Below, one piece after another: positions 9,649 through 64,000 of a stretch of DNA of 64,000 nt; positions within the stretch are counted from its first letter, which is position 1, and each line of letters begins with the position of its first letter. The DNA is from a phage. The stretch lies in sequence record PZ347661.1; one strand, given 5' to 3'. The position numbers were made by a program, and so were the translations under genes. Below the pieces are notes generated by a model, which did no database searches, was not told where the DNA came from, and saw only the letters and a list, made by a program, of their open reading frames with translations.

Positions 9649-9694
9649 TTGCTTTATTTGGGGCTATAAACCCTGAAATAAAACCCTCAAGTTT

Positions 9695-9725
9695 GACCTC
9701 CCTATTGAAGGGAGGTCTTTTTTTG
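9695..9725 (+). terminator. intrinsic terminator
   Basis: GACCTCCC-loop-GGGAGGTC followed by TTTTTTT. Confidence 0.7.
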
Positions 9726-9749
9726 ACTTAAACATCCTGGAGCCAGGAA

Positions 9750-10913: not shown

Positions 10914-10947
10914 TCAGTAATTCCATTAGCTTTAGGAGAGTAAGTAA

Positions 10948-29510: not shown

Positions 29511-31660
29511 GTATTGACCTTACTGGCATAAGTCACCACCCTGCAATTGAAGAAATTGTAGACGTGCTGTGTAACAAGACACAAAACAACGACAGAGGAT
29601 TCTTCCGTGTCGAAGTAGCCTACTTCCTGGCTAAAATGGCATCCTGTATGGGTGCAACCATTGTCACTAAAGACCGTGGTGACTTACCAGTCAACATTTA
29701 CGCTATGGCATTAGCAACGTCTGGCTTCGGTAAAGGTCACTCGGTAAATATTATTGAAGACGGATTTATGACTGGCTTCCGTAAACGCTTTATGGAAGAC
29801 ACCATGCCCGTCATTGCAAATGACCGTTTATGGAAGATTGCTAACGAACGTGCTGCTCGTCAGGGTACAGACCAGAATGATGAGTTTGATAAAGTTGAGG
29901 CAGAGTATAAGCGTGCTGGAGCATATCCGTTTACGTTTGACTCAGGTACTCCACCAGCAGTTAAACAATTACGTCACAAGCTGTTAATGGCTGGGTGTGG
30001 TTCAATCAACCTTCAGATTGATGAGATTGGTTCAAACCTGTTAGCTAACACAGATGTATTAACCCTGTTCCTGGAGCTATATGACCAGGGTAAGGTTAAG
30101 CAGAAGCTAACCAAAAACACTGCTGAAAGTGTTCGTGGAGAAGAACTGGATGGTAAGACTCCAGCTAACCTGTTGTTGTTTGGTACACCAAGTAAGCTAC
30201 TGGATGGTGGTCAGACCGAAGATCAGTTCTATGACTTCCTCGATACAGGGTATGCACGTCGCTGTCTGTTTGCCATTGGGCATTTAGACAAACGAGCACA
30301 TGCAACAATGTCTCCGGAAGAAATCTACCGTAACCTGATTAAACAGGATAACGTGCAGTCTCTTGGCAAGTGGGCTAATCATTTCCATAGTCTGGCTGAC
30401 CCAAACCTGTTTGGTTTTAAAATGGTTGTGGAAGATGCTGTGGGGATTGCTCTGATTACTTACAAGATTGATTGTGAGAAACAGGCAGAGGCTATGGCTG
30501 ACCACGAAGAGATTCGTAAGGCTGAAATTTCACACCGTTACTTCAAAGCTCTTAAGCTGGCAGGAGCACTGGCATTTGTTGACCAGAGTTCATTCATTGA
30601 GATGTCCCATCTTAAACAAGCAATCCTGCTTGTAGAGGAATCTGGAGCAGCATTCCAGGGTATTCTCAATCGTGAGAAAGCCTATGTGAAGCTGGCTAAG
30701 TACATTGCCTCTGTAGGTAAAGAAGTAACTCATGCTGACTTGCTGGAGTCATTGCCTTTCTATAAGAGCGGTAATGCAGCTCGTAATGAGATGATGACTC
30801 TTGCTACAGCATGGGGTTACAAACAGCACATCATCATTAAGAAAACCTTCAATGAAGGTATTGAGTTCTTCCGTGGTGAGACTCTGAAAGAAACTGACAT
30901 CAATGAGATGATAGTGGCATATAGTGATAGCTTTGCTTATGACTACATTGGTGAACGTGTACCGTTCGACCAGTTGCATGTATTAACCCAAGCTCCCGGT
31001 ATGCACTGGGTAAACCATCATATGAAGAATGGGCATCGTTCTGAAGAGAACGTTATTCCAGGATTTAACATGATTGTTATTGACTGTGATGGTGGAGTAC
31101 CACTGCATATGTGCCATGAACTGATGAAGGAATATAAGTTCATGACCTATACCACTAAACGTCATTCTGATGAAGAGAACCGATTCCGACTGATTATTCC
31201 AATGAACTATGAGTTACACCTCGACACTGAGGAATACAAAGAGTTCATGAATAACGTTATGTCTTGGCTACCGTTCGAAACGGATGAGTCTGCTAATCAG
31301 CGAGCCAAGAAGTGGATGTCCTGCGAGATTGGTTCCTATCATTACAATCTTGAAGCAAATCTGTTGGATGTGCGTGACTTTATTCCTCGTACTAGTAAGA
31401 ACGAGCAGTTCCGGAACCAGATGAAGGAAGTACAGTCGTTGGATAATCTGGAGCGTTGGTTCGCTAGTCGTATTGCTACCGGTAATCGTAATAATCAAAT
31501 GATTAAGTACGCACTGGCATTGGTTGACAGTGGTTGGGATTTTGCCCAAGTACAGCAAGCCGTCCACTCATTCAATAAGAAACTGGTTAATCCATTGCCA
31601 GATGATGAATTGAATGCAACCGTAATGGTCACCGTGGCTAAACGCTTCGCTGGCAAGTAA
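29507..31660 (+). CDS. primase-like replication protein (N4 gp43-like, 717 aa)
   Basis: Large replication-module protein with P-loop-like SGFGKGHS; primase role inferred from synteny, not from a clear motif. Confidence 0.5.
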   Translation: MSIDLTGISHHPAIEEIVDVLCNKTQNNDRGFFRVEVAYFLAKMASCMGATIVTKDRGDLPVNIYAMALATSGFGKGHSVNIIEDGFMTGFRKRFMEDTMPVIANDRLWKIANERAARQGTDQNDEFDKVEAEYKRAGAYPFTFDSGTPPAVKQLRHKLLMAGCGSINLQIDEIGSNLLANTDVLTLFLELYDQGKVKQKLTKNTAESVRGEELDGKTPANLLLFGTPSKLLDGGQTEDQFYDFLDTGYARRCLFAIGHLDKRAHATMSPEEIYRNLIKQDNVQSLGKWANHFHSLADPNLFGFKMVVEDAVGIALITYKIDCEKQAEAMADHEEIRKAEISHRYFKALKLAGALAFVDQSSFIEMSHLKQAILLVEESGAAFQGILNREKAYVKLAKYIASVGKEVTHADLLESLPFYKSGNAARNEMMTLATAWGYKQHIIIKKTFNEGIEFFRGETLKETDINEMIVAYSDSFAYDYIGERVPFDQLHVLTQAPGMHWVNHHMKNGHRSEENVIPGFNMIVIDCDGGVPLHMCHELMKEYKFMTYTTKRHSDEENRFRLIIPMNYELHLDTEEYKEFMNNVMSWLPFETDESANQRAKKWMSCEIGSYHYNLEANLLDVRDFIPRTSKNEQFRNQMKEVQSLDNLERWFASRIATGNRNNQMIKYALALVDSGWDFAQVQQAVHSFNKKLVNPLPDDELNATVMVTVAKRFAGK

Positions 31661-31716
31661 GCAAACAGGAGTCTTTCTTTGGTTTGAAGGACTCCTAAAT
31701 TAAATGAGGAAAAATA

Positions 31717-32469
31717 ATGTCCGAAGTAATTCCCAATGATATGAACACTCAGCTAATCCTGATTGCAGGATTCTCAGCGAGCGGTAAATCAGCATCACTG
31801 CGTAACATCCGGAACCAGGAACGCTGGCTCTATCTGAACACTGAAGCAGGTAAACGTCTGCCTTTCCGTAACAAATTCAATACCTACAACATCGAAGACC
31901 CATATCAGATTTGGGAAGCATTTGATGTTGCATCTCCTGGTGGAGAAATGGCAGATGATGTTGATGGTATCATCATTGACTCAGCAACCTTTATGATGGA
32001 TATGCTGGAATCCCAGTATGTATTGCCCTCTGCAAACACACAAAAGGCATGGGGTGATTTTGCACAGTTCTTTAAGATACTGCTGCAACAGAAAGTTGTT
32101 AAGTTTGGTAAGCCAGTAATCATTACTGCTCATGCTAAAGACGAACTGGATGAAGCTGCTGGTGTGATGAAAACATTCATCCCAGTGAAAGGTTCTCTTA
32201 AGAATAACGGGCTTGAAGCCTACTTCTCTACAGTGGTTTACGCAGAACGTGTAGACATTAAAGAACTGGAGAAGTATGGGAACAAGATGCTTGAAATTAC
32301 GGAAGAAGAACGTGACTTAGGGTATAAGCACGTATTCCAGACCCGTCCAACCAAGAAGTCAGTAGGTAAACGACTTCGTTCCCCAATGGGTATGTTTGAT
32401 AAGTCCGAGACTTATATCGACAATGATGCCCAGAAACTCTTAGACCACCTGGCTGAATACTACGCTTAA
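31717..32469 (+). CDS. P-loop ATPase (250 aa)
   Basis: Walker A GFSASGKSAS and Walker B-like IIIDSAT. Confidence 0.55.
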   Translation: MSEVIPNDMNTQLILIAGFSASGKSASLRNIRNQERWLYLNTEAGKRLPFRNKFNTYNIEDPYQIWEAFDVASPGGEMADDVDGIIIDSATFMMDMLESQYVLPSANTQKAWGDFAQFFKILLQQKVVKFGKPVIITAHAKDELDEAAGVMKTFIPVKGSLKNNGLEAYFSTVVYAERVDIKELEKYGNKMLEITEEERDLGYKHVFQTRPTKKSVGKRLRSPMGMFDKSETYIDNDAQKLLDHLAEYYA

Positions 32470-32508
32470 GCGTTTGTCTGGTTGTTAATCACTTATTAGG
32501 AAAATCAT

Positions 32509-33312
32509 ATGTCATTGTTCAGTAATCTGAAAGAAAAAACCAAAAACGTTGAAGCTGCTAAAGACTCCCTGGGTGGGGGTGGCTTCGGTGCAAAAGAAAC
32601 CGATATCTACACCGGTACTGTAAAAGTAGCTTACGTAGGCAAAGCTGACTCTGGTGCAGACTGGATGCAGTTAATCATTGAAGACCTGAAGAACTCTGAT
32701 GGCGTACCTGCTGGTGAGTTCCGTGCTCAGGTGTACTTCACTTCTGGTAATGCTAAAGGTAACAAGCCAACTTACGAGAAGAATGGCAAAGAATACTTCT
32801 TGCCTGGCTACACTGTCATTAACGACATGATGCTGATGGCTACCGGTACTGAACTGCCTGAAGCAGACTTCGAAGAGAAGATTGTTAAGGTCTATGACTT
32901 CGATGCTAAAGCAGAGGTTAATAAATCCGTCATGGTTCCAGTTGACCTGGTTGGTCAGACTGTTACCTTCGCTCTGGAAAAAGTTCTGGAATCTAAGCAG
33001 GTTAAAGGTGACAACGGCTACGTTGACTCCGGTGAAACTCGTGAAGTAAACGAGATCCAGAAAGTGTTTCATCCGGAACTGCTGGTCACAGTCGTCGAGG
33101 CTCAGGAAGCAGAGAAGGCTGAGAAAGAACTGACCCCAGAACTGGCTGTATTCTATGCAGCATGGCTGGAAAAGAACAAAGGCAAGACTCGTGATAAGAC
33201 CAAGGGTTCTGCTGGTGGTAATGGTAAAGGTGGCTTGCCTCCTAAACCAGGTGCAGGTGCTGGCACGGGTACTACTCCTGCTGGTGGTAAATCACTGTTC
33301 GGTAAACGTTAA
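32509..33312 (+). CDS. single-stranded DNA-binding protein candidate (N4 gp45-like, 267 aa)
   Basis: Size and position match the N4 SSB (recalled as ~265 aa); Gly/Pro-rich flexible C-terminal tail; inference. Confidence 0.5.
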   Translation: MSLFSNLKEKTKNVEAAKDSLGGGGFGAKETDIYTGTVKVAYVGKADSGADWMQLIIEDLKNSDGVPAGEFRAQVYFTSGNAKGNKPTYEKNGKEYFLPGYTVINDMMLMATGTELPEADFEEKIVKVYDFDAKAEVNKSVMVPVDLVGQTVTFALEKVLESKQVKGDNGYVDSGETREVNEIQKVFHPELLVTVVEAQEAEKAEKELTPELAVFYAAWLEKNKGKTRDKTKGSAGGNGKGGLPPKPGAGAGTGTTPAGGKSLFGKR

Positions 33313-33866
33313 TGAAAATCCCAATTGTTGGTGCAGACATTAGTCTCCGCAATTGGGGTTTAGCTCGTGGGATGCTGGACATTGAGTCCGGCGTCTTCGA
33401 GCAGGTCGAACTTAAACTGGTTCAAACTGAAGTTGACCACAACAAACAAGTTCGAACCAACTCCAAAGATATACAAGCCGCTCACGATTTGTTTCTTGGT
33501 TGTGAGGAATGGTTACGGTCTGCTAAAGCAGTATTCGTAGAAGTACCAGTAGGCTCTCAGTCTGCTAACGGTATGAAATCCTATGGAGTATGCGTAGGAT
33601 TAATCGGTGCATTTCGTGCATTGGGTTGTCCAATCTTTGAAGTATCCCCAATTGAAAACAAACTTGCACTGGTCGGTGATAAAACTGCATCTAAGGACAC
33701 GATGATTCGTGCTGCTCATGCCATTTATCCTGAAGCCAACTGGCTCACAGATAAGAAGGGCAAACTTCTGAATAAGAATGAGCACTTAGCAGATGCAATC
33801 GGTGCAATCCATGCTGGTGTAAATCTCCCAGCTTTCCAGAACCTCATTAAGTTATTAAAGGCGTAA
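33312..33866 (+). CDS. RuvC-like Holliday junction resolvase (184 aa)
   Basis: N-terminal VGADISL (catalytic Asp), FVEVP (Glu), C-terminal HLADAIGAIHAG resembling the RuvC HxxDAxxxA motif. Confidence 0.55.
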   Translation: MKIPIVGADISLRNWGLARGMLDIESGVFEQVELKLVQTEVDHNKQVRTNSKDIQAAHDLFLGCEEWLRSAKAVFVEVPVGSQSANGMKSYGVCVGLIGAFRALGCPIFEVSPIENKLALVGDKTASKDTMIRAAHAIYPEANWLTDKKGKLLNKNEHLADAIGAIHAGVNLPAFQNLIKLLKA

Positions 33867-33867
33867 T

Positions 33868-34320
33868 ATGCAAATCATTTTGAACCAGTCCGAAGTAGAA
33901 GCTGCTGTACAGGCTTATGTTGATGATCAAATCAATCTTGCTGGTGACATTAATATTGTCATCAATGCAGATGGTACAGCCTCCGTTGGTATCAACGAAG
34001 AGGTTCACGAAGATACTCCACCCGTGGGAGTAGAGAAGAAAACTCGTCGTTCTCGCAAAAATCCACAGGAAGCTAAACATCGTCCGGTAGAACCAGAGCC
34101 GGAAGAAGCTGTTGAAGAGGTAAAGGTAGAAGAAACCCAGACCTCTACTGGTGGTCCGAACGGGAATTCTACGCCGGAACCTGAAGAAGAAGCAGTAACT
34201 GAACCAGTAGCACAAGAAGAAGTTGTGCAGGAAGAGGCCAAGAAAGAAGATCGTGAGCTTCCTCCGGAAGAACGACCGGTAACGAAGCCTTCACTGTTCG
34301 CTGGCCTTAAACGTAGTTAA
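33868..34320 (+). CDS. hypothetical acidic protein (150 aa)
   Basis: ORF; Glu/Pro-rich C-terminal half. Confidence 0.5.
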   Translation: MQIILNQSEVEAAVQAYVDDQINLAGDINIVINADGTASVGINEEVHEDTPPVGVEKKTRRSRKNPQEAKHRPVEPEPEEAVEEVKVEETQTSTGGPNGNSTPEPEEEAVTEPVAQEEVVQEEAKKEDRELPPEERPVTKPSLFAGLKRS

Positions 34321-34722: not shown

Positions 34723-35144
34723 TATCGTGAAGGGTTCTGTTAGAATCCTTTGAGATAGGAACTCCTATCATAACCTTTCTTAACTTAATCTTTGCCGTAT
34801 GGCACTGACGCTAGGGGTGGCCCCCCATCCGTCAGGTAGACTATTTTAAGAATGGGTTATCACAGCAAATGTAAAGCAACATTCGGGTTAATCAATGGCC
34901 TCTCCCTATAGGGGCCATTTCTGAATCTTAGGCTATATCCCAAAGGTTAATATCTTTGGGATAAGGCTTCAGATCCCTTATCAACTAACCGCTCAATGTT
35001 GAGCATTTTAATCACATAAGCCCCTATATGGGCTGGGTTAAATGTCGGATAGCATAGCTACCTACAGCATCGAATTGTTAGGTCTTACATGCAAACTAAA
35101 TCATAGGGTAAAGAGGGACTCGTCCTCCCTCCCCTATTATAATG

Positions 35145-35214
35145 GTCGGGGTAGCGCGTAGGCATGTGCAGAAGGTCGCTACTTCTCTCGCTGGTTCGAA
35201 TCCAGCCCCCGACC
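35145..35214 (+). tRNA. tRNA-like element A (about 70 nt, isotype undetermined)
   Basis: 7-bp acceptor pairing GTCGGGG/CCCCGAC, U8-A9, T-arm GCTGG-TTCGAAT-CCAGC, possible anticodon stem AGAAG/CTTCT; hand fold leaves a short variable loop; no encoded CCA. Confidence 0.4.
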
Positions 35215-35765
35215 TACTGACATCCTATCAATGAGTACATTAGGCTAACGTGCGGAGGTTTACACTGTAGCCGGTGTAGGTGGAGAAGACGGCAGGATAG
35301 CTACCTGTGCTTAGTGTACTCTTTGATAGTTTTCGTAAGCGATTATGCGGTTTTTTAGAAACGAACCAATAACATAAATGCAAACGATGATGTTGTTCTG
35401 ATGGCGGCGTAATAGCCTATAAGTCAGCAAGGTCTTCCGATTCCTTGTAAACAAATTCGGCGCAGTGGCCCGCTGTGATTAATAATGGGCACACAACAGG
35501 TAAGAGCATTTAGGCTACTGAGAAATCATCCGAGGCAATCAGACCTATCTTCTGTTAAGTGCTCTTTCCGTTGTGGTGAATGTGCAGGCTGATGCGCAGT
35601 GGGACGTGGCTGACTCACGAGGATGGCTCAAGCGAATAAGCAAGCTCGACGCCGCCGAATAAGCGCCTTATGCCGGAGATCAGTACCGGCCACCACAACA
35701 AGTCCAGACGATATCTGAGTGACTATAAAAACAGATGGAGCCAGGTGGAATCCCTGGCAACTAAT

Positions 35766-36401: not shown

Positions 36402-36475
36402 GCCCACTTAGCTTAGACAGGGAAAGCAACCGACTAATAATCGGAAGGTCACTGGTTCAAATCCAGTAGTGGGTA
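36402..36475 (+). tRNA. tRNA candidate D (74 nt cloverleaf, anticodon uncertain)
   Basis: Acceptor GCCCACT/AGTGGGT (G-U first pair), D stem GCTT/AAGC, anticodon stem CCGA/TCGG with loop CTAATAA, T-arm ACTGG-TTCAAAT-CCAGT; the hand fold gives an unusual AAU anticodon. Confidence 0.45.
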
Positions 36476-36791
36476 CTTATTTGCTGCAATATTCCCATAG
36501 GGAATGGTGCCGTATACGCCACCTAGTTTCTGGTGAAACTCCAGATGCAGCAATCCATTCAGCAGTAACATAGTCCTGATTGCATTGCACTCTAAAGACA
36601 ACACTGGTAAGACAGTCCAGTGACTGCTAATGTACTGTTATTCCCCTCGACGGGAATTTCGCTAGTGAAGGTAACACTTAAAAATCCAAACCTACGTCTT
36701 ACTACTATCGGGCTATCAACCCACAGTCGCTTAACACACTAGTGGTAGTAGTTTGACGGCCTAGCCTCGTTAGCTGCGTTAAAGCTACTAA

Positions 36792-48892: not shown

Positions 48893-48918
48893 AGAGAAAA
48901 GCCCCGGATGGGGCTTTA
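48893..48918 (-). terminator. intrinsic terminator between the 648-aa gene and the vRNAP gene
   Basis: On the - strand AAAGCCCC-ATCC-GGGGCTTT followed by TCTCTT. Confidence 0.5.
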
Positions 48919-48933
48919 TTAGTATGTAAGATT

Positions 48934-50880
48934 TTATCGAGGTTGCATATAGGGAGGTAAACCCTCTGCTAATTTTAGGTAACGTTTAGCACGTTCTTCA
49001 TCTTCACGACTACGTTCACGCTCTACTGAAGCATTAGAACGGAAGTTCTGTGGAACCAGGTTTCCTTGGTCAGCCACTACAGTATTGACAGCAGCATCTA
49101 GTGCAGCCCGTGCTCTTGCTAACTCAGCTTCACGAGCAGGGATAGTAGCAGCAAGCCCACTTTGCCCAGCAGCTACACGACGACGAGTATCAGCAAGTAA
49201 GGCTTCTGCTTGTGTTACCTGGTTCTGGGCATTAGCAATATTACCCTGTACCTGGGTAAGAACATTATCACGAGCAGTAGCTTCAATACCTTCCCCACGT
49301 CGTACCGAACGTGCCAGTTCTCTGGCAACGGTATCGTCAATACGAATTCCATTACCACCTTCCGGTGATTTCCCTGGTGTAAGCGCATCCCAGGTACGAC
49401 CGAGGATACCTTCCGGTACGTTGGTAATAGACTGCTTAAGAATCTCAGCAGCTACAGCAGGAGACTGTCCGGATTCCTGCATAACTTTATTCAGTCGAGC
49501 TATCATCCATCCTTTCTCAGAACCTTTGAAAGCATCCTTAAGAAGACGGTCTGCCACTTCACCAATGGTAGAATTATCACGCAATGCACGAGCATAGTTA
49601 GCAGTAATGGTTCCAGTATTATCTTCCGACTGACGTGCAGCAACTGTATTGCCTGCCATGTTTGAAACTACTTGCTGGGTCTGTAGCTGGTCAATAGGTG
49701 CACCTACTTCTGCCTGTGCAATTAACTGACGTGCTTCACTCCATGGCATGTCCTTATAACCACCCACACCCAAGTCAGGCAATGCTGCCCAAGTCTTGGA
49801 AAGGTTACCATTCTTACGGTCATTGAAGATTGCTTCAGCTATTTTGTCCTGTACTTCAGGAGTCATTTGCTGATTACGCCAACCTGAACCAAGTACTTTG
49901 GGGGCATAGTCTTCCAGAGTAGCTTTATTAATCTGGAATGCACCTACAGGAGAATGACCTTGTGATGGGTTATTAATCATAGTTTGCTGATGATTAGTAA
50001 CCTCTCCCAGTGTCATCTCGGTAATAGGCTTATCAGTAGCAGCAAAGGTATATGTTGCATCATAAGGGGAACCAGAACGAGTACCAGCAGTTCCTGGAGC
50101 AGAGCCAGAAGAAGACGTAGCATAAGTACCAGGGAATCTCTGGTTCACACCTCGCATGATTGCAGCACGTACACCAGGAGAAGCATTCTGCATAGCAGAC
50201 TCTGCCAGTGTAAGAGCATCCATAGGTGTGGAAGCACTACGGAAAATATCAGTCAGTATACCGGATGCAGCTTGCGAATCAGCATCATTACGCTGAGCCA
50301 CACCCAAATCAAAGCGGTTCTGTGCTTGGTTAATAGCCTGACCACCCTGACCTTGAAGACGACTCAGCATATCCAGTTGTTGGTCAGCAGGAAGTGCAGA
50401 CAGTGCCTCACGAGTCTGATTCAATGCAGCATTAACACGGTTCTGGTCACCAGACTGATAAGCCTCAGATAATAAACGGATAGCTGGGGATGCATTATCT
50501 AATGCAGAATCAGTATTCTGTAAACGATCAAAACGATATGCATTGTAATCATTAATTCCCTGCTGACCTTGTTGAGTCAGAAGAGTACCTGCTCGCTCAT
50601 CCAGATTCTGGAGGGTATGTTGGTTTACCAGTGATGGGTCAACTCCCTGGAACAATGCACCAGATGCCAAAGCATTGCGATACTCAGTAGGGTCTTGATA
50701 CTGCATAGCATTCATCATGACGGCATTGCCAGCCTCCTGCTTGGCAGCGTTCTGGAAGTTACCCAGTGCATCACTTAAGCCGGAGGTGGCGTTACCAATC
50801 ATGCTTCCAAATGTGCGAATGCTGTCACCAACTCCAGAAAAGTTAGGTGCATCAACATTACGCCATGTAATCTGAGCCAT
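48934..50880 (-). CDS. virion protein (N4 gp51 position, 648 aa)
   Basis: Large ORF in the late operon; role inferred from synteny only. Confidence 0.55.
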   Translation of the reverse strand: MAQITWRNVDAPNFSGVGDSIRTFGSMIGNATSGLSDALGNFQNAAKQEAGNAVMMNAMQYQDPTEYRNALASGALFQGVDPSLVNQHTLQNLDERAGTLLTQQGQQGINDYNAYRFDRLQNTDSALDNASPAIRLLSEAYQSGDQNRVNAALNQTREALSALPADQQLDMLSRLQGQGGQAINQAQNRFDLGVAQRNDADSQAASGILTDIFRSASTPMDALTLAESAMQNASPGVRAAIMRGVNQRFPGTYATSSSGSAPGTAGTRSGSPYDATYTFAATDKPITEMTLGEVTNHQQTMINNPSQGHSPVGAFQINKATLEDYAPKVLGSGWRNQQMTPEVQDKIAEAIFNDRKNGNLSKTWAALPDLGVGGYKDMPWSEARQLIAQAEVGAPIDQLQTQQVVSNMAGNTVAARQSEDNTGTITANYARALRDNSTIGEVADRLLKDAFKGSEKGWMIARLNKVMQESGQSPAVAAEILKQSITNVPEGILGRTWDALTPGKSPEGGNGIRIDDTVARELARSVRRGEGIEATARDNVLTQVQGNIANAQNQVTQAEALLADTRRRVAAGQSGLAATIPAREAELARARAALDAAVNTVVADQGNLVPQNFRSNASVERERSREDEERAKRYLKLAEGLPPYMQPR

Positions 50881-50892
50881 GATGGTTTCCTA

Positions 50893-51336
50893 TTAACGGG
50901 TTAATTTATTAGCTGCAATATAAGCATCAGCAGTAGACTGGTCACGGTTCTCTGCAACAGCACGACTACGAGCACGGTCTTCCAGTGCAGTGTTATAAGA
51001 CTTAATCTGGTTATTCAGGTTAGTGTTAGTAACACTCTTAGCAAAGTTCAACTGGTCTTTGGCTAACTTATTGGCCTGGAAACCACTATAGATATTAGCT
51101 AATGAACCAAGTGCACCCAGTCCTAACTGAAATGTGGGTACGTTCATACCCAACTGATTGGCCGAACCAGACATGAACGAAGTAGGGGCAGATGCACCCA
51201 AATTCGTACCCATACCAATAGCTGCACCTGGGTTATAGTTCATAGCCGGGGTATTAAAGTTCTGATTGTTATTAGACATCCAAGACATAGCTGCTGGCTG
51301 TGGGGTTTGGTTGCCTGTTAAGAATGACAAATCCAT
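50893..51336 (-). CDS. virion protein (N4 gp52 position, 147 aa)
   Basis: ORF in late operon; Asn/Gly/Ala-rich. Confidence 0.5.
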   Translation of the reverse strand: MDLSFLTGNQTPQPAAMSWMSNNNQNFNTPAMNYNPGAAIGMGTNLGASAPTSFMSGSANQLGMNVPTFQLGLGALGSLANIYSGFQANKLAKDQLNFAKSVTNTNLNNQIKSYNTALEDRARSRAVAENRDQSTADAYIAANKLTR

Positions 51337-51349
51337 GGGGATTCTCCTG

Positions 51350-53992
51350 TTAAACTAAGTCAGTATTAAGGGTCATGTCAGAGTAGTTACCTATCATGTC
51401 TAAAGACAGGTCGGCTATATCTGAACCAGTCATGAGAGTACGTGATAAGAATGAATCCAGTGACTCCATTGACACGAATTGCATTGGGTCAATTACACCC
51501 TGTCCAGCAGTACCAAACATTTCTTCATACTGCTTATTGATTTCCATCATATCAGTATTGTACTGCTGCATTACTTTCTCTGCTTTCTGAATAGTAGCAG
51601 CCGTAGATGCATTAATATACTGGCTAATACCATTACCTACTGAACTGGTAAGCTGCATGATGTTTTGGGCATTCATCATTTCACTTGCCAGAGCAGACAG
51701 AGATGTACCAGTAGACATAGCAGTACCAACATTCATAGCTACCATCGAAGCAACGGCTGCAATGATAAAGCCCAGTTTGTCTCCGAACAGTGCAGCAGAT
51801 ACTTTAGTGATAATGGATACCAGAATCATTCCAGCAATAGCGTTTGCTACAGCACCGACTATCACAGCAGCTAATCCAACAAAACCCAGAGATGCACCAA
51901 CTGCACCATATGCACCAAGTATACCTGCACCACCAGCACCAGCTGTAAATACAGAGATAACCACAGCGACCACTACAACAACAATCTTAAATGCCCCAGT
52001 CTGATACCACTTCTGCTTAACCTTCTTATATGAGTTCATCACTAAGTAGGAGCAGGCAGTAGATAACTGAGTACTTCGAACTAGTGACATGGAACGATAG
52101 ATGTTGGTGTGCAGTGGGATAATGAACCCACTCTCTTCTGCATCACCCATTGCTTCGGCTACATCAATGTGCACTGACTTATTTTTGTATACCCTGTTAT
52201 TGTGGTTTAGGCCCAGTACCCTGAGTTTACGGTAAGTGTCATTACCATCCTGCCAGAGTAACTCATACTCCTGCATAGAGTAGAATGTAGTGGTAACTTC
52301 CAGTTTGTTGTTAGTACCAGTGCGTATGTTCTTACGAGTAAGAGTTATATCCCCTGCATATCTGGATCGAAGTTGCCCTTGCTTAGCACCAGACCATGCT
52401 TGCCCCGAATGAGTAGTTTCAGATACATAGTTCCAGCCAATAGTCATGTCGTACTTGTACTGCTTATTGCTATGTACCCTAAACTCTCGCTTAGGTATAA
52501 CTGGGTATTCCGGCAGTGGAGGAGGTGTTCCAACAATCTGACCTTCCTGCCTGTTCCACCATTCTACATATGCATCAACTGCATCATTAGCTGCCTGATA
52601 ACCTGCAATTACTGCTTCCAAAGTCGGGTAGGTTGGGTCAGGTGGGAATGCTTCAGTAGCCATCTGAAAGAAACGATAGATATATTCCTTAGCAGTGTCT
52701 TCTGGAGTATTAAGAGATACACCGAATGTGCCGTAAATGTACTGAATATCTCCTATGTCATCATTCTTCTTAAGCTCTGTCACCACCTTATCAATTTTCC
52801 CACCAGTAGCTTTATAAAGAGCTTTCTTACAGTGTGGGTAGATTGAGTCATTCTCTACCCATTGCTTGTCATTCCTGATTGGAATGAATGGATAGAATCG
52901 GTTATCAGTAGCTTCGGTATTAAACAGTGAATCTAGTGCAACATTACCAGAGTTTTGCTTATAGATAAGCAATTTAGGTGTACCAACAGCAGTCATCTCA
53001 GTATCTGTACGGGTAGTCTGGGATGAGTACTTACGAACCAGTGTCTCTGTGGTTGTAGTAATTGTGTCAGTACGTGTAACACCACCACCTATATCAACTA
53101 CATTGGTAGTTACAGTAGTACTGGATTGAACCTCACCAAACTTTTTGTGGGTCATTACTCTGTCAGATACAACTACAGTCACATCATCAGGTTTCTCTGT
53201 AAATCCTCTACGATAAACCTTAACGTAAGAATTCCAGTTATCCACACTTGGTTCAGTGACAGTACTATCTTCATCCGGTCTGCCATCAGAGTAGACAGAA
53301 TGAGTATGTGTAGTCTTAGTAAGATTAGTTGTATTAGCTGTTGTATCACTTGATACAGTAGTCCATAACAAAGTGGAGGGTAAGTCACCCTCATTGTCAT
53401 AGACAGTAGTCGGCCCTACTACCGGAGGATTAGTATTAGGGGACTTGTAAAATGAGTAATAAGCATAGAGATATAAAGCACCTGGTTCAAAGTTAGTAGG
53501 TGTGAATTTAATAGTGGAACCTCCATCTAAGGAGGTCATAGTAATTTCATTGGTATCTTCATCAATATCTATGTCGAATCGTTCCATGATTCGACTTGGA
53601 GCATTCTCATAAAGATACTGGTCACACCATTGTTCAAAGTCAGCAAAGCCAATCTCTGCTGCCTGAACATAGACAGACTCTCCAGTAGGAGGTGTAATTT
53701 GACCCTCTATAACAGTAGGGTCAATCTTAGCCAACACACCTAATGAAGAACCAGCCATACCAACTTTTGAATCATAGTGATTCTTACTCCAGCTGGAGAA
53801 CAGTCGCATACGAATACCCGGCCCATTCAGATAACTATCAGAGATAGTGTCTGCCATAGTGAATCCTGTATTGGAAACAATGTTACCAATGACCACAGTT
53901 TTCATATAGTTAGGACGTTTATGTATATCCCCTGCCATGTTATAGACAGAGGATGCTACGTATACTTTGGTCTTCCCACTGAATAAGCCCAT
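51350..53992 (-). CDS. virion protein with C-terminal multi-helix hydrophobic region, possible ejection/channel protein (880 aa)
   Basis: C-terminal ~200 aa contains several Gly/Ala/Val-rich hydrophobic segments (e.g. FKIVVVVVAVVISVFTAGAGGAGILGAYGAVG). Confidence 0.55.
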   Translation of the reverse strand: MGLFSGKTKVYVASSVYNMAGDIHKRPNYMKTVVIGNIVSNTGFTMADTISDSYLNGPGIRMRLFSSWSKNHYDSKVGMAGSSLGVLAKIDPTVIEGQITPPTGESVYVQAAEIGFADFEQWCDQYLYENAPSRIMERFDIDIDEDTNEITMTSLDGGSTIKFTPTNFEPGALYLYAYYSFYKSPNTNPPVVGPTTVYDNEGDLPSTLLWTTVSSDTTANTTNLTKTTHTHSVYSDGRPDEDSTVTEPSVDNWNSYVKVYRRGFTEKPDDVTVVVSDRVMTHKKFGEVQSSTTVTTNVVDIGGGVTRTDTITTTTETLVRKYSSQTTRTDTEMTAVGTPKLLIYKQNSGNVALDSLFNTEATDNRFYPFIPIRNDKQWVENDSIYPHCKKALYKATGGKIDKVVTELKKNDDIGDIQYIYGTFGVSLNTPEDTAKEYIYRFFQMATEAFPPDPTYPTLEAVIAGYQAANDAVDAYVEWWNRQEGQIVGTPPPLPEYPVIPKREFRVHSNKQYKYDMTIGWNYVSETTHSGQAWSGAKQGQLRSRYAGDITLTRKNIRTGTNNKLEVTTTFYSMQEYELLWQDGNDTYRKLRVLGLNHNNRVYKNKSVHIDVAEAMGDAEESGFIIPLHTNIYRSMSLVRSTQLSTACSYLVMNSYKKVKQKWYQTGAFKIVVVVVAVVISVFTAGAGGAGILGAYGAVGASLGFVGLAAVIVGAVANAIAGMILVSIITKVSAALFGDKLGFIIAAVASMVAMNVGTAMSTGTSLSALASEMMNAQNIMQLTSSVGNGISQYINASTAATIQKAEKVMQQYNTDMMEINKQYEEMFGTAGQGVIDPMQFVSMESLDSFLSRTLMTGSDIADLSLDMIGNYSDMTLNTDLV

Positions 53993-53993
53993 A

Positions 53994-54836
53994 TTAGTTC
54001 AGCCCGTTGTTAGACTTCAGCTTGGTCAGAATGGTGTCAATACTTGCGTTAGTGAAGCCATTCGGTGGGTTCAAGCCTTCATCAATAGTCTTCTGTGTAA
54101 TCCATGCATCAGTAAACAGCTTAGATGCTTTAACTTCTGCATCACGTTGATAAGAAGTAATCTGTTGGGAGTACAACTCTTTCTGTTTACCTACAGAACC
54201 AGTAACAGTAGCACCATCACTACGGGTATCCAGTGTCTGTGCACGTTGTGCTTCGGTCTGCTCAGTAACCAGCTTAAGCTGTTGAGGTAACATCTGACTA
54301 GCATTAAACAATGCAGCACAGTATGTCTCAGACTCAGTAGCAATTTTCATCTTAGTAAGAGCATATTCACTCTTAGCAGATATTGCCTGAATCTTAGCCA
54401 GTACAAACTGAGCTTTAGAAGTAGCTAATGTAACGCGTGCAGTAACTGCCTGAATCTGTGCCAGTGCAGCAGCCCAGTATGCCTGGTCACGACCAAGTAA
54501 GAACTGAACAGCATTACTCATGCATGATTCCATCATAGCAATGTATGCTTTGGTATATTCACCACCTGTAATACGGTTAGCCTTAAACTCAGCTTTAAGG
54601 TGATTATGTGCAGACTCCATTAATGCATCAAACGTACCACTACCACCTACTTCACGGGTAGTAAGGGATTCATTGGTTACTTTAGAAATAGCACCAAAGA
54701 TTGGAGAACCATCTCCACCTGGGATATCCCATTCAGGGCCGGACATATCAATATCAGGAAGGGTAAAGTCATCACCCTTAGTTAACTCTTCTAGAAGTCG
54801 GTTAGCTTCTACCTCAGCAGAACAAGACATAATCAT
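53994..54836 (-). CDS. virion structural protein (280 aa)
   Basis: ORF in late operon. Confidence 0.5.
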
Positions 54837-54847
54837 TCCTCTTGGTT

Positions 54848-54886
54848 CAAAAAGAAACGGCCCACGGAGTTACCCCAGTGAGCCGT
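54848..54886 (-). terminator. terminator-like hairpin
   Basis: On the - strand ACGGCTCAC-loop-GTGGGCCGT (one mismatch) followed by TTCTTTTTG. Confidence 0.45.
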
Positions 54887-54906
54887 GTTGAACTGTAGCT
54901 TATACG

Positions 54907-55545
54907 TTAATCGTTAAGGCTACCAGCAGCAATCTGTGCTTGAGCCAGTTGAGCTAATTCAGCTTCAGTCAACGGAGGCAGTACTTCAATGGAGAACTCA
55001 CGTGCTTCTGTTGCACGGATGTCCGGTAAGCCATTCTTACCTTTACGAGTAGTAATGTTAATGAACTTACGTTCTTTAAGAAACTCGTAGATACAGTACG
55101 GAATATGATAACCATTGTCGGTCACTTCACCGAATGGAACAAACTTACGTACAGTACCCATATATTCGTTAGCTACGGTGATAATCTCACCTGGCAGGTC
55201 TTTCTTCTTCGGATCAAGGTTCTGGATACGTACACGAATCAGTCGAGTCTGTTCTGCACGAATCTTCTGACCCAGGGTCATCTTCTTAACACCAGATTCT
55301 TGGTTAGCACCCAGTGGGTTAACAGCAGCTTCTACTACTGGTTCATCTTTTACTTGTGCAGCTTCAATCTTCTCGCGAAGCTTCTCAACGGAAATGTTGT
55401 TAGAGAACTTGATATTCATCAACGTTGCACGTTGCTTAAGAACTTCAAGTTCGCTAGGCATTGCAATATCGTTAACGGTATCTTCGTTGCCCTGTACGTT
55501 CACTTCTACGTCAGTGGTCGGTTTATCGTTAATGCTCATGTTCAT
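54907..55545 (-). CDS. virion structural protein (212 aa)
   Basis: ORF in late operon. Confidence 0.5.
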   Translation of the reverse strand: MNMSINDKPTTDVEVNVQGNEDTVNDIAMPSELEVLKQRATLMNIKFSNNISVEKLREKIEAAQVKDEPVVEAAVNPLGANQESGVKKMTLGQKIRAEQTRLIRVRIQNLDPKKKDLPGEIITVANEYMGTVRKFVPFGEVTDNGYHIPYCIYEFLKERKFINITTRKGKNGLPDIRATEAREFSIEVLPPLTEAELAQLAQAQIAAGSLND

Positions 55546-55575
55546 ATTTCCTGTGGTTCATTTAGTTTTATTAAG

Positions 55576-55595
55576 AGGGGGACTTATGTCCCCCT
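55576..55595. terminator. GC-rich hairpin downstream of the major capsid gene
   Basis: GGGGGAC-TTAT-GTCCCCC; T tract is on the + strand side, so - strand terminator function is uncertain. Confidence 0.4.
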
Positions 55596-55612
55596 TGTTT
55601 TATTTCGGACTA

Positions 55613-56815
55613 TTACAGAGGAGCAACAGTCTTAATCAGAGCCAGACGTTCTGGGCGTTTAACCAGGATACCATAGTACCACTTGATAGAACTGAAGCCA
55701 GTTTCACCATACGGGTCATTACGGTCAGCAGTTTCTTTACCAGGCATCTTAGTCATGATGGTGAACTTAACAGACTTACCATCAGTCTGGAAGCCAATGG
55801 TAGAGAAGGAGTCATCACCAACTACCAGCATTGGGAATACGTCGTAGTGCTCCTGACCAGATACCATAGAAGTACGGTAACCCGGGTTAGTAGTAACCTG
55901 AGCACCAGCACCTGCCCAATGCAGCATCTCAGGAACCTGAATGATACGGAACTTATCAATACAACCGATTTCACCATTCATCAGAGTACCAGCATCAGCA
56001 TAGTGCTGAACTTCGATGAATGCTTTATTACCGAACAGGTCTTTCATCGCTTTCAGTTCTGGAACCAGTTCAGAACCAACGTACATTACACGAGTACCAC
56101 CAAGTACTTTGGTATCTGTCAGTTTAGAACCAGTGATGATAGTAGTCTGGGTCGGAGTACGGTTCTCAGTAAGAATCTGGTCAAGACGCATCAGGTTCTT
56201 ATAAGAAACTACAGACGGGGTAGCACCTTCACCTGTGATGGTAGCATCAGAGACAGCAGCACCTGCATACAGTACAGTACCAGCAGCAGCCAGCAGGTCT
56301 TTCTGGAGAACAGCTTCAGTCAACTGCACAGCACCGTTCATCAGTTCACGAGACAGGTGTTCTTTCAGTTGGTCATCAGAATCAAAGTCCAGAGACTCTT
56401 GGGTAAATTCATAGAAGAAACCGAACTTATGAATAGAGCCTTCACGAGCAATACGAGTAAAGCCTACACGGTTAACACGACCACCGTTCTCTGACAGCAG
56501 AGGCAGTTTAGAAGTGATGTTACCTACGTCTTTGGAAGAACCGTACAGGTTACCATTAACGATGGTAGCACCATTAGCATCAATACCCTGGTCGTTAATG
56601 TTCTTATCGTCGAGCAGAGGAACGTACTCATACACCTTAACAGTCTTACCGTAGTTCTTCGGCATGTTAACGGTGTTAGCCAGAGGCATAAAATACTGGT
56701 CTTTACGGGACTGAATAATAGCCTTCTTCAGCCAGTAATAGGTATTCATCTGGTCGGAACCAGCACCATCAATGCTAGATTTCTGACCGTCAATTGGAGC
56801 GTTATAGTTTAACAT
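55613..56815 (-). CDS. major capsid protein (N4 gp56-like, 400 aa)
   Basis: Size and position match N4 gp56 (recalled as ~401 aa); upstream of portal in the late operon; followed by a strong hairpin; no motif-level proof. Confidence 0.6.
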
Positions 56816-56831
56816 ATCATCTCATTCCTGT

Positions 56832-58052
56832 TTAAAGACTACCCGGTACTGGGAGTTTAGCGAAATCTTCATCACTCATAGCGAGTGGGTTTACAATAGG
56901 CGTTGCTTTACGTGTAGCAGCCCGATTAAGGGAAGCTGCTTTAGCTTGCTCACTGTTAGCCAGAGTCTGCTTAGGTCGTGCTACACGCACTACCGGCTGA
57001 ACTGCTGGTTTAACTGCTTGTACCGGTTCAGGCTTAGCCACTTGGTTAAATGCACCCTGCTGTGCAAGGAGATTACCAACGTAGTTATAAGCCTGAATGA
57101 ACGGAGTACCTACCGGAATCTGACCTAACACCTGAAGACGATTCACTTCGTTAGCAATGGTGTCATAAATACCATTCTCACGCTGTTCGTGAATGGTGTG
57201 GAGTAAGCCACGATTCTGATAAAGAGCATCTTTACTGGCAGCATCCCATGTCGAGCTAATAACACCTAATGTAGCTTGTCCTTCTTGAGTAGACTTTAAG
57301 TCGTCAATTTCGGTTGCAAAATCTGCTTCGGTGTCTGTAACACGGTGTTTGCCACCCTGGTAGTTAATTTCCTCATCAGGATTAAAGTCCAGAGGATCTG
57401 TACCAGAGTCTTTTAACAACTTTTTAATGGCTTCAGGATTCTTTTTATCCAGGTCAATCAGGAAAGAAAGTTTTTCCTCATCCATTAAACCGTTGTTCTG
57501 TAGCATCAGCATTACCTTACGGTACGGCTGAAGTTCTTGCATCTTACGAGTATAGTTAGCACCCATCTGCATCAGGCTAATGGCCTCCTCCGGTGAACGG
57601 GGAGTAATCATTTTGCCGTTAGCTTTAAAAGGAGCCATCAACTTCTCGTAACCTTCCTTATAGTTGAAGTCAGCAGGCAGACCTTCAGACTGTTTGCCTT
57701 CTTCTTTCTGTTCCTGGCCTGGTTCAGTAGTAGAAGGTTCAGCTTTAGTAATCGGCTCACCGTTACTATCAACTTCTGTGTCAACAACTTTATCATCAAC
57801 TTTATCAGAAGTTAAAGAATTTGCTGAATCATCTTCAACTGGCTCAGTTTCAGGGGAGGTTTCTTCGGTTGGTAGGTCTTCAACAGCAGAGGGGTCAACT
57901 TCTTCATCAGGAGTCTGTACGCCGTTGGTTTCTGGGTTGTTCTGAGTGGAAGTATCTTCCTCAGCAATAATTGCTGGGGCTTCCATATTCAGAATCTCAT
58001 CATCCGACATTGCGAGAATGTCGGAAGCTGTGGTTGCAGCTTCCGTAGTCAT
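56832..58052 (-). CDS. head assembly protein, possibly scaffolding (406 aa)
   Basis: Strongly acidic N-terminal third; lies between portal and capsid genes. Confidence 0.45.
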   Translation of the reverse strand: MTTEAATTASDILAMSDDEILNMEAPAIIAEEDTSTQNNPETNGVQTPDEEVDPSAVEDLPTEETSPETEPVEDDSANSLTSDKVDDKVVDTEVDSNGEPITKAEPSTTEPGQEQKEEGKQSEGLPADFNYKEGYEKLMAPFKANGKMITPRSPEEAISLMQMGANYTRKMQELQPYRKVMLMLQNNGLMDEEKLSFLIDLDKKNPEAIKKLLKDSGTDPLDFNPDEEINYQGGKHRVTDTEADFATEIDDLKSTQEGQATLGVISSTWDAASKDALYQNRGLLHTIHEQRENGIYDTIANEVNRLQVLGQIPVGTPFIQAYNYVGNLLAQQGAFNQVAKPEPVQAVKPAVQPVVRVARPKQTLANSEQAKAASLNRAATRKATPIVNPLAMSDEDFAKLPVPGSL

Positions 58053-58429: not shown

Positions 58430-60700
58430 TTATAAGTTCATACCAAGAGCCGATGCTGGGTCTTGGCTAGGGTCATAAAACTGGGAACTAAGTGAATAAG
58501 TCGGATCTTGCTGTGCAGCTAAGTCACGTTCCTGTAAAGAGTTCCCGTTAGTCAAAGCGTTATATCCGACAGCAGCAGATATGTTGGGGGTAGTTTCACC
58601 TTCTTTAGTAGGTGTTGTCAACGCCTTAGTTATTTGAAGGTTCTGGTTTCCTTGAGATTGTGCTTTTTGTTTTTCCATATCACGGGCATGTTTAGTACCA
58701 GATTCTTGTTCCAGATAATCCAGGTCTTTAAGGTCACCGCTAGAAATAGCTTCTTTAGCCTTAGCATTATTGAGTGCAATCTTACTTTTCAACTCCTCAT
58801 TCTCAAGCTGTGCTTTCTGAATTGCTAATTGCTTAAGCTGTTCTTCCATAGGGTCTGGTTGTGGTTTCCAGGTACGTAACTCATGTGCAAGGTCTGGCAT
58901 ACGTTTAAGTTCTGCAATCTTAGCTACAAGAGATAACGTAATAGTCTGGTCAACTGTATTACCTAATGTTTGAACCATGAAGCTCAAATCCTGGGACTTC
59001 TGGTTATCAATTTCAGCAGTATTAATATCAACCTCAATGTCGAAGTTACCTTTAAGGTCTTCACGGTTAATTTCTACATACTGCTCATTAGTAATACGTA
59101 CCACTTCCTTTTCAGATAAGAACACAGCATTCATTGCACAAATCTTAGTACCAATGTCTGCCATACCCTTAGCTAATCGACGAAGGATTGCCATCTCACG
59201 TTTGGATGCTGCATCGAGTGCACCACGAATACCAGCAGCTACATCCCCATAAGCTGCACCAGTTACACCACCAGAAAATGCTTTAACACCAGTTAGTGCT
59301 TCTGCTTCCTGGTTCTGCATCTGAGTCATTACTATTGCCGACTGAGGTAATTCCGGGAACTTATGTTCCATAATGGCCTGACTAGGATTACCCTGCATTG
59401 GGTTATATTCATAGTCTTGCCCATCATCATATCGACGACGGTTAAGGGTATCTAACATCCCCTTGGGATATCCACGCTGCCCATTTGCACTTCGGCCTAA
59501 CAGGTCAATCATCCCACGCATAGTTGCACCAAGAATTGCTTGGTTATCCCCTAACAGTTCAGCATCAGCCTCACCATAGAGTTCACGTTTACGTGGCATA
59601 TAAGGAACAACTACCAAAGGTAGCTTACCATCCGGGAATGGGTTCTTTTCCATACGGATAAGAGTAGAACCAATCCAGGTAGCAACAATTGGTTCCAGTG
59701 AACCATCGTCGTTAATGTCGTAGAATCCCCAGTATTCATAGGCAATGACTTTCTTACGAAGTGCATCCTTAAACTGGAAATCGCCAGGGGTTTTACTTTC
59801 ATGGTCTGGGTCAGTCATAGGACTGGAACTTTCCCAGTCAATCTTATCCAGATTGTGGTAACGGTCCTTGTTCTTCATAAGGTCTGCTTTGCAAGTCTCA
59901 AATGAGATAACTGCATACAGAGCCTTATCCAAATCACCATTACAGCTTGGGTCAATAACTACGTTATTGGGGTTAAGCATTTCAACAGTAGGCCTGTTAA
60001 CCAGTGCCTTCTCTACCTCTACCTCAGTAACACCAGTCTGGATTGCATAGGTAGCTTCCCCAGTTTCATTGAAGTAGTTAACAGCTTCCTTAATATCTTC
60101 TGGCATTGTTTCGTCATATTCACGAGGATTTTCTGCCTGAAGCTGCAAAGCCTGCTGAAGAATATCTGCTTGCTCTTGGTTCTCAATTGGATACAACTGG
60201 AAGACTGGTGTTTCTGTTTTAATCTTAACAGTCTTACGTTCCCAACCAATACGAGCAATACCAGTACCGTCATCTACGACACTGTGTACGTAATCATCTA
60301 CCAGTTTTACTTTATTAAGCTGGGTACGGAATTGGTAGTTAAGAACTAATTCATTCTGACGTGCAGCTAACTCATCTTCAAAAGTAACAGGGGTTACTTT
60401 AAAGAGTTTGTTAGACGAGAGGAATGGTTCTGACAATGGTGCATAACGCCACTCTGCCTGACGGCGAACCAGTCTAGGTTGGACTTGTGATCGTCCCTTA
60501 ACCTTTGGGGGTTTAGCCTTACCCTTAACTTCCATTAAGTCATTCCACTCACGAATCTGAGCCATGATTGCATCGTGAGCAGGCTTAGCTGATTCCAAAT
60601 CACCCTTGAGTAATTGGATACTTGGTTCCTTCTTCCAGTCCGTTAACTTCTCTGATTGAGTCGGGTCTGGTAAAGGCTTAAAAGTGTCTTGGTGTTCCAT
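58430..60700 (-). CDS. portal protein (N4 gp59-like, 756 aa)
   Basis: Size and position match N4 gp59 (recalled as ~760 aa), three genes upstream of the capsid gene; synteny inference. Confidence 0.6.
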
Positions 60701-62653: not shown

Positions 62654-64000
62654 TTATGGCATTCTTATGATTCCAGTTATGTTATTAGGGGTTGCTGGCA
62701 AGGCTGTACCGCTGAATGTCAACTTCAAGAGTCCACCATTATTTGACGGTGTTATAGTTAAATTAGGTGCCGTCCCGTCTAAGTAAACAGCATCGTTATA
62801 TACGCGACCCCGCACCCGAATACCTTCAACCGTCAAGTTGATTAGAACAATCATATGCGGTCTAAAAGTAATGGCGGTATAGATAGCCCGGGTCGCAACA
62901 CCCTCATTAATCTGAGAGCAGAACGGTATAGTTGTGGAAGCATCACCTTGGTCACCACTAAACGGCAAATCTACTTTACCGCCGGTGAAGTTCTGACGTG
63001 CAATGAAATTACCAGACCCATCAAGCGCCACAGCAGGAAATACTATTTTCTCGAAACCAGAGAATGTCCACCCAGACGGAACCCCCGGCAGAGTGTTAAC
63101 CGATACCGCAGCAGGAGGAATGTTGACCGTTAAGCCATTCAGGTTTCCAGCATCAGTATTGAATTTGGTGGTGCAGTTCAGGAAGTACGTATTCTCACCG
63201 AATACACCAGAGCTTAACTGGTTGCCGTAGAAACAAGTATTTACGTTGTTAAAGAATCCACCAATTTTAACGGCTCTATGCGCTTGCGCCGCACCCATGT
63301 CAATGGCTACATCGGTGATATCTTCGTAGTAACCGTAAATTTCCAACGGCATTACTTCCCCGGTGAATACTAGCCCTTTATCACAGCTTTCAGCGTTCAC
63401 GAATTCAAGGCGCTGCCCGTTTATAGCGCCGTCAAAACGATACGCAAGTTTGCGCTGTGTAACGTTAATGTTATGGATGTTCTGCGAGTTGATATAGGTA
63501 TCAAACAAGAACGCCGGTTGTGTATGCGTTTTTGGTGCCGTCAGGTTTCGGGAAGTCATAGTATGGAACGCACCATACCAGCTTGACTTAGCAATTAGGT
63601 TTTGAGCACAATCCACGAACGTAATAGAGTGTAATTCGCTTGCCTCTGCAAAGTTCCGTACGCTAAAACCAATCCCTGCATTTCTTACGATGAAATTTCT
63701 AATCTTGGTTCCAGTTACGCGATAAGTATTATCTGCGAGGGCCACATTGCTCTCTAACACCCCTGTTGATGGGTTAAACCCACCAGTAACAAACATAGTA
63801 TTTGTACCATTTCCGACTAGTTCAGCGCCGTTCAGGTCGATGTCTACCATGGCAGGAATGATGATGGGGGAGCTGCCGATTACGTTAAATCGACCACCCC
63901 TTGATGATACTTTGCGGATGCCTTGTTTCATAGCATCAGCGTAGACATCGCCACTTATTCCATTACCAGCAGCTTTAACTGCATCAGCAATAGCTTGTGT
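62654..64000 (-). CDS. tail protein, partial (N-terminus lies beyond the window end)
   Basis: Reading frame stays open from the first Met at 63931 to the window edge; Asn/Gly/Thr-rich repetitive sequence typical of fibre or beta-helix tail proteins. Confidence 0.55.
   Translation of the reverse strand, partial: TQAIADAVKAAGNGISGDVYADAMKQGIRKVSSRGGRFNVIGSSPIIIPAMVDIDLNGAELVGNGTNTMFVTGGFNPSTGVLESNVALADNTYRVTGTKIRNFIVRNAGIGFSVRNFAEASELHSITFVDCAQNLIAKSSWYGAFHTMTSRNLTAPKTHTQPAFLFDTYINSQNIHNINVTQRKLAYRFDGAINGQRLEFVNAESCDKGLVFTGEVMPLEIYGYYEDITDVAIDMGAAQAHRAVKIGGFFNNVNTCFYGNQLSSGVFGENTYFLNCTTKFNTDAGNLNGLTVNIPPAAVSVNTLPGVPSGWTFSGFEKIVFPAVALDGSGNFIARQNFTGGKVDLPFSGDQGDASTTIPFCSQINEGVATRAIYTAITFRPHMIVLINLTVEGIRVRGRVYNDAVYLDGTAPNLTITPSNNGGLLKLTFSGTALPATPNNITGIIRMP

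Follow-up and report, generated by a model that had tools for sequence, protein, structure and literature searches.

When a phage protein carries a long run of hydrophobic segments, does it have to act in a membrane? This question is raised by an open reading frame (ORF) of 880 codons at positions 51350-53992 of a phage DNA stretch of 64,000 nucleotides (record PZ347661.1), which was analysed as a whole and is called the window here. From the letters alone, a first-pass annotation had described its product as a virion protein ending in ~200 residues of Gly/Ala/Val-rich hydrophobic segments, encoded next to the gene of the virion RNA polymerase (vRNAP) and reminiscent of ejection proteins that form a trans-envelope channel. 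The ORF itself was confirmed by the ORF list and the translation, on the minus strand, with an ATG start and 880 codons plus stop. The product is very probably the ortholog, in a Gamaleyavirus, of the tail plug gp53 of N4, a single-copy component of the tail-gating complex of Schitoviridae, and judging from the N4 plug the Gly/Ala/Val-rich helices are most likely a greasy cork in the mouth of the tail tube and not a membrane channel.

The identification as a plug rests on homology over the full length of the protein, the gene order, the predicted fold of the core and the conservation of the hydrophobic block together with the tail behind it. A phmmer search of the PDB returned chain FA of entry 9YFT, 'Gp53' with 885 amino acids (E=0, residues 1-879), and chain M of entry 9ZE4, the DEV plug, named 'N4 gp53-like protein' and 740 amino acids long (E 1e-19). 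The latter entry, which also holds the DEV tail tube gp75, is titled 'Asymmetric Tail Gating Complex of Pseudomonas Phage DEV'. In BLASTP the protein showed 55% identity and 70% positives to N4 gp53 (NC_008720) over 880 amino acids and thus over the full length, and the numbering of both proteins is identical over residues 1-102 and 610-837. PHROG 2220, which has no assigned function, matched at E=0, and the Pfam search matched no family. In the fold and PDB sequence searches plugs were the only matches, and no solved ejection protein was found. A likeness to maturation proteins of ssRNA phages was rejected, since the BFVD matches were weak (E 3e-5 to 1e-2, probability <0.45) and were taken as the generic resemblance of long beta-sheets.

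The window derives from a G7C-like Gamaleyavirus, which over 8 kb (48900-56900) has a DNA identity of 93-94% with G7C-like coliphages such as ShWW44, ZQ2, St11Ph5 and ECBP1. In these phages the plug protein has counterparts with 91-96% identity, deposited as gp53 'hypothetical protein'. The family comprises 2,395 representative clusters; near-identical genes are already deposited, and the structure and role of the family are already published (2026). The gp53-like gene is split in some deposited genomes, into two pieces in Bp4 (NC_024142.2) and into 653 + 246 amino acids in pSb-1 (BFVD V5UQE7 and V5UR75), probably due to a frameshift or sequencing error.

The gene is part of a long series of structural genes on the minus strand, in which portal, a 114-aa ORF, gp57-like gene, major capsid protein, a 212-aa ORF, gp54-like gene, plug, gp52-like gene, gp51-like gene and vRNAP follow each other in coding-strand order. 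The order tail tube, plug, gp52, gp51 and vRNAP is the one of N4 and St11Ph5. Only 1 nt separates the stop codon of the gp54-like gene from the ATG of the plug gene in the junction sequence, and a strong AGGAG ribosome-binding site for the gp52-like gene is located just after the plug stop codon. The vRNAP gene is not the neighbour it had been taken for, as the gp51-like (48934-50880) and gp52-like (50893-51336) genes, ~2.5 kb in total, intervene. The argument from adjacency for a channel role therefore fails.

What such a plug looks like is known from N4, where a C1 map of the tail tip at 3.6 Å allowed residues 9-724 of gp53 to be modelled (Bellis et al., Nat Commun 2026, PMC13434306; PDB 9YFT). 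A single copy, most of it outside of the tube, plugs the 12-mer gp54 tube, resulting in a tube:sheath:plug mismatch of 12:6:1 (PMC13434306). The tube is corked by a 'hydrophobic knot', built from the short helices of residues 29-56 and 670-716, and the hydrophobic segments make up six short helices; the model stops at residue 724, and the last ~160 residues are unresolved and lie in the tube lumen (PMC13434306). The plug is bound by the domains D9-D10 of gp65, the sheath and receptor-binding protein, and the authors proposed that receptor binding moves the plug sideways and that its C-terminus, on being withdrawn, works like a 'ripcord' on the gp52 copies in the lumen (PMC13434306). Strong plug density persists on the tails of N4 particles emptied in vitro, for which the authors suggested rebinding through the knot (PMC13434306).

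Homologs of the protein were also found in virions, namely N4 gp53 by liquid chromatography-mass spectrometry and cryo-electron microscopy (cryo-EM) (PMC13434306), LIT1 gp74 by electrospray ionisation tandem mass spectrometry with 5 peptides (PMC3715699) and Moo19 gp70 by mass spectrometry, with weak plug density (PMC11654681). By this homology the protein should indeed be a virion protein, as the first-pass annotation had stated. An earlier survey of the N4 virion did not identify gp53 as a particle component (Choi et al. 2008). In phage DEV the plug is gp74; a lateral receptor-binding fibre of gp56, gp55 and gp54 holds it in place, and deletion of gp56 leads to loss of DNA from the virion (mBio 2026, PMC12892993).

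The window's protein and N4 gp53 are full-length orthologs (880 vs 885 amino acids) encoded at the same position between the gp54 and gp52 genes, and both have an N-terminal segment, a beta-feather, a WYQ(T/S)G motif, a hydrophobic block of 100 amino acids and a C-terminal tail of ~120 amino acids. DEV gp74 (9ZE4 chain M) shares the hydrophobic block, which aligns with that of the window's plug. However, it has 740 amino acids and no beta-feather, and its identity in the structural alignment is only 12-14%. A functional analogue is the tail needle of P22 (gp26) and Sf6, which shuts the distal tail channel, retains the DNA and is released on host contact. Unlike the plug, the needle is a trimeric coiled coil along the tail axis, symmetric and not mismatched 12:1, and it has neither a hydrophobic knot nor homology to the plug. 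The podovirus tail needle is mentioned in the DEV plug paper as well (PMC12892993), and the fibre of DEV recognises LptD (PMC12892993).

A Kyte-Doolittle scan with 19-residue windows revealed a single hydrophobic block at ~662-765 (~100 amino acids; Ala 21%, Val 16%, Gly 14.5%). Four 19-residue windows, 670-688, 691-709, 710-728 and 740-758, are membrane-helix-like; their Hessa free energies of insertion sum to between -0.1 and 2.6, while the median for the protein is 19.4. K669, K730, D738 and K739 are the only charged residues within the block. The Gly/Ala/Val-rich segments noticed in the first-pass annotation are therefore real, but they extend over ~100 and not ~200 residues, and the protein does not end in them, as the non-hydrophobic tail (766-880) follows. 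The gp51-, gp52-, gp54- and gp55-like neighbours have no 19-residue Kyte-Doolittle window of at least 1.5, and the plug protein is the only one in the gp50-gp55 cluster with such windows.

The block was found in each of the 260 fetched homologs of at least 600 amino acids, with a median span of 102 amino acids, and from its end to the C-terminus the distance has a median of 124 amino acids (119-134 amino acids in 90% of these homologs). Few parts of the plug protein are as well conserved as the block in an alignment of 63 sequences, the most distant at ~35% identity, and none of the aligned sequences has a charged residue at positions 681-720 or 741-760. Pollock gp62 and Vibrio phage 1.245.O gp41 (annotated 'TMhelix containing protein') have the block, too. 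Because it is conserved in the alignment, in all 260 homologs and in other Schitoviridae lineages, the block is selected for and not accidental. For a glycine zipper, motif counts gave no strong evidence either way, and the idea was rejected: GxxxG is not enriched (2 observed vs 2.2±1.3 in shuffles), and small-xxx-small motifs are only mildly enriched (23 vs 17.7±2.5).

An AlphaFold2 (AF2) monomer model was built on the 63-sequence alignment. Over most of residues 7-660 it reaches predicted local distance difference test (pLDDT) values of ~80-93 and shows a mixed core with long antiparallel strands. The core fold as predicted matches the solved DEV plug. The strands of the beta-feather comprise residues 211-234, 241-269, 272-300 and 306-334 (pLDDT ~80-92), and the corresponding profile positions are absent from shorter members of the plug family. 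Core and feather are the parts most diverged from N4, with 41-42% identity. The hydrophobic block and the C-terminal tail are modelled as helical at low confidence (pLDDT 35-63). The prediction that the hydrophobic segments are helices and not beta strands thereby agrees with the model and with the six short helices of N4.

Transferring copy number, position and knot from the cryo-EM structures of N4 and DEV, one plug copy would sit on the distal end of a dodecameric gp54-like tube, with the first ~660 residues, globular core and beta-feather, outside of the tube. Residues 29-56 and 670-716 would interweave as short helices and form the hydrophobic knot that corks the tube, whereas residues 717-880, by alignment the likely counterpart of the N4 stretch left unmodelled in the tail lumen, would run up the lumen beside stored gp52 copies. 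Engagement of the receptor by the receptor-binding protein may then shift the plug sideways and draw out the cork and the C-terminal tail, the 'ripcord', and upon removal of the plug gp52, gp51, vRNAP and DNA could exit the tail. The Gly/Ala/Val-rich composition would let short helices pack tightly inside a narrow, greasy channel and would not serve to span a bilayer.

Several points weigh against this picture of a plug. Its function is transferred from an ortholog with 55% identity, and N4 gp53 (9YFT) was compared by sequence only, the fold comparison being made with the DEV plug. The monomer model covers the knot region at pLDDT 35-63 only and does not confidently reproduce the knotted fold. 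Residues 717-880, which include the fourth hydrophobic segment, lie outside of the resolved N4 knot. Furthermore, close relatives are without gp64/gp65, the plug anchor of N4, so that the gating partner and the trigger may differ from those of N4.

The channel itself is formed by other proteins in N4 and DEV, the outer-membrane complex by gp52/DEV gp73 and the periplasmic tunnel by gp51/DEV gp72, together with the N-terminal domain (NTD) of the vRNAP (PMC13434306, PMC11445570). Measurements showed pore activity of gp52, gp51 and DEV gp73 (PMC13434306, PMC11445570), and in E. coli cells that express them, N4 gp51 and gp52 act like membrane proteins (PMC13434306). The roles of gp51 and gp52 were taken from the main text of PMC13434306, which together with its Figs 6 and 8 states the reverse of the abstract, where the outer-membrane complex is assigned to gp51 and the periplasmic tunnel to gp52; one sentence of the paper also pairs gp51 with DEV gp73 and gp52 with DEV gp72, contrary to the protein sizes. 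Like the plug, the ejection proteins of N4 (gp52/gp51/gp50), DEV (gp73/gp72/gp71) and T7 (gp14/gp15/gp16) are virion proteins with hydrophobic helices, stored in or at the tail channel, which are encoded in the same gene block and take part in genome delivery. However, they are multi-copy, expelled and oligomerise to 9-10-mer pores and tunnels, whereas the plug is single-copy, mostly external and kept on emptied particles (as seen for N4), and there is no homology between the two groups. In the window, the gp52- and gp51-like proteins are without a Kyte-Doolittle window of at least 1.5, despite the membrane-protein behaviour and pore formation of the N4 orthologs, and the gp52-like protein has a sub-threshold Pfam match to Ntox22 (E 0.0077).

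On this background the structures of N4 and DEV largely refute the proposal that the protein is carried in the virion, is expelled and assembles as an oligomer into a trans-envelope channel for DNA and vRNAP, or a part of it, and we consider this proposal highly improbable. Hydrophobic helices, a virion location by homology and the direction of transcription shared with the ejection cassette would suit it, but the N4 ortholog is a single chain, lies mostly outside of the tube and is retained on empty particles, and one chain with ~four helices is too small to line the ~22-35 Å channels of these phages. In addition, channel roles were given experimentally, by pore activity and cryo-EM, to gp52, gp51 and gp50-NTD, whose orthologs are separate genes here, and the protein has no similarity in sequence or fold to any solved ejection protein. 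What stands of the proposed tie to ejection is that the protein would take part in controlling it, as a plug rather than a channel. Slightly more remote still is the explanation that the block anchors the protein in the inner membrane during a membrane-associated assembly of the tail and is buried in the tube only secondarily. It could draw on the hydrophobicity alone and on the membrane behaviour of N4 gp51 and gp52 in E. coli. However, topology cues of a signal or anchor are absent, the block comes after 660 soluble residues, its four charged residues show no evident positive-inside pattern, membrane-bound tail assembly is not evidenced in the Schitoviridae literature examined, and the resolved N4 structure accounts for the block without a membrane.

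A plug with two roles has more in its favour, yet we still regard it as unlikely. The protein would first cork the tube, and afterwards the block and the C-terminal tail would enter the outer membrane of the host and anchor the tail tip or seed the gp52 pore. Insertion into a membrane on release is the behaviour of the knob loops of phi29 gp9 and of the C-termini of siphophage tape-measure proteins. The four segments with the hydrophobicity of membrane helices argue for such a role, as does the restriction of these hydropathy windows to the plug within its gene cluster. Moreover, the resolved knot leaves out roughly one half of the block (717-765) and the conserved tail of 115 amino acids, both of which lie in the lumen beside gp52, and the strikingly constant length of the tail among the homologs suggests a function beyond the filling of space. 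The 'ripcord' proposed by the N4 authors for the plug C-terminus points in the same direction (PMC13434306). On the other hand, emptied N4 particles keep the plug with strong density, though they were emptied in vitro, only one copy is present per N4 virion, and no membrane assay has been reported for gp53. The content of 44% Gly+Ala+Ser with Gly-rich breaks also suits short packed helices better than four helices spanning a bilayer.

If the protein is the plug, it would have to be held by a partner other than that of N4. The genomes of St11Ph5 (8410-10762) and PD205 (6257-11349) are without the genes gp64/gp65 of the non-contractile sheath, which are present in N4 (28758-34192), and between gp63 and gp67 carry genes for a gp63.1 tailspike and a gp66 tail protein instead. 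No gp64 was found at the corresponding position of the window, which ends at 64000. The ORF located there (62654-63931) was rejected as N4 gp64, which would have implied a sheath, as no similarity was found. Because these relatives have neither gp64 nor gp65 and this ORF is unrelated to N4 gp64, the N4-type anchor of the plug, in which gp65 D9-D10 hold it, appears to be missing here. Among 50,697 phage records the ORF has only three distant matches, a tail fibre of Iodobacter phage PhiPLPE with 32% identity (two records) and a 'putative pectin lyase' of Aeromonas phage PS2 with 28%. From this comparison the phage seems to carry a host-recognition module which is not shared with any deposited Gamaleyavirus.

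Another tail protein, which may come from the gp66/tailspike module, would hold and release the plug. This is suggested by analogy with the lateral fibre of DEV and with Moo19, which has a single gp66-like side appendage (PMC11654681). The strong divergence of core and feather from N4 fits a different anchoring partner. With low confidence we extend this to a scheme for the sheath-less Gamaleyaviruses, in which a fibre of the gp66/tailspike type would be the trigger and residues 717-765 of the dislodged plug, together with the tail of ~120 amino acids, would insert in or destabilise the outer membrane and nucleate the gp52 pore. If true, this would be a third way to couple receptor binding to unplugging, besides the sheath of N4 and the receptor-binding fibre of DEV.

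The coordinates of the plug, its parts and the surrounding genes are listed in Table 1. The gp54-like protein matches 9D80_C (E 2.5e-149), the N4 Gp54 chains of 9LC0/9YF4/9YFT (E 2.6e-124) and the DEV gp75 tail tube in the PDB. The first Met of the vRNAP ORF is its position 7, which places the likely ATG start at 48830. PHROG 2120 labels the gp57-like gene 'tail length tape measure protein', as do GenBank annotations; for a short-tailed phage with a single 12-mer ring as tube this label is odd and probably a propagated misnomer. A gene-poor stretch upstream of the end of the vRNAP gene contains tRNA-Ala(cgc) (35144-35215, plus strand) and tRNA-Ile(aat) (36402-36476, plus strand), and a tRNA-Ala is annotated at the equivalent place in St11Ph5.

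Table 1. Location of the tail plug gene, its putative functional segments and other genes in the window.
Feature	Position	Strand	Basis and remarks
Tail plug gene, gp53-like	51350..53992	-	phmmer/PDB, BLASTP, PHROG 2220
Putative equivalent of N4 knot part 1, residues 29-56	53825..53908	-	same numbering as N4; 71% identity; AF2 helices 29-40, 46-55
Beta-feather, residues 205-340, Thr-rich, four predicted antiparallel strands of 24-29 residues	52973..53380	-	AF2
Hydrophobic block, residues 662-765, after the WYQTG motif	51698..52009	-	hydropathy, composition, conservation
Putative equivalent of N4 knot part 2, residues 670-716 (cork in tube mouth)	51845..51985	-	same numbering as N4; 66% identity
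C-terminal tail, residues 766-880, 115 aa, Met/Ser/Gln-rich, non-hydrophobic	51353..51697	-	composition; 60% identity to N4; AF2 helices at pLDDT 35-62
Tail tube, gp54-like, 280 aa	53994..54836	-	PDB matches; directly upstream of plug gene
Ejection protein, gp52-like, 147 aa	50893..51336	-	9YF4 '16.5 kDa protein' E 2.4e-46; DEV gp73 8VXQ E 6e-4
Ejection protein, gp51-like, 648 aa	48934..50880	-	11MN '66 kDa protein' E 9.3e-116; PHROG 6126
vRNAP ORF, gp50-like, ~3600 aa	38013..48848	-	synteny with N4 and St11Ph5 gp50
Major capsid protein	55613-56815	-	
gp57-like gene	56832-58052	-	PHROG 2120; between portal-side genes and major capsid protein
Portal	58430-60700	-	
425-aa ORF at gp64/gp63.1 tailspike position	62654-63931	-	PHROG 17640 'tail fiber protein'

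For annotation this means that dozens of deposited genomes of Gamaleyavirus and other Schitoviridae, in which the gene is listed as 'hypothetical protein', 'membrane protein' or 'TMhelix containing protein', contain a gene that can be named tail plug. It also means that a membrane-helix-like run in a phage structural protein need not indicate a membrane channel; here it would most likely be a greasy cork in a protein tube.

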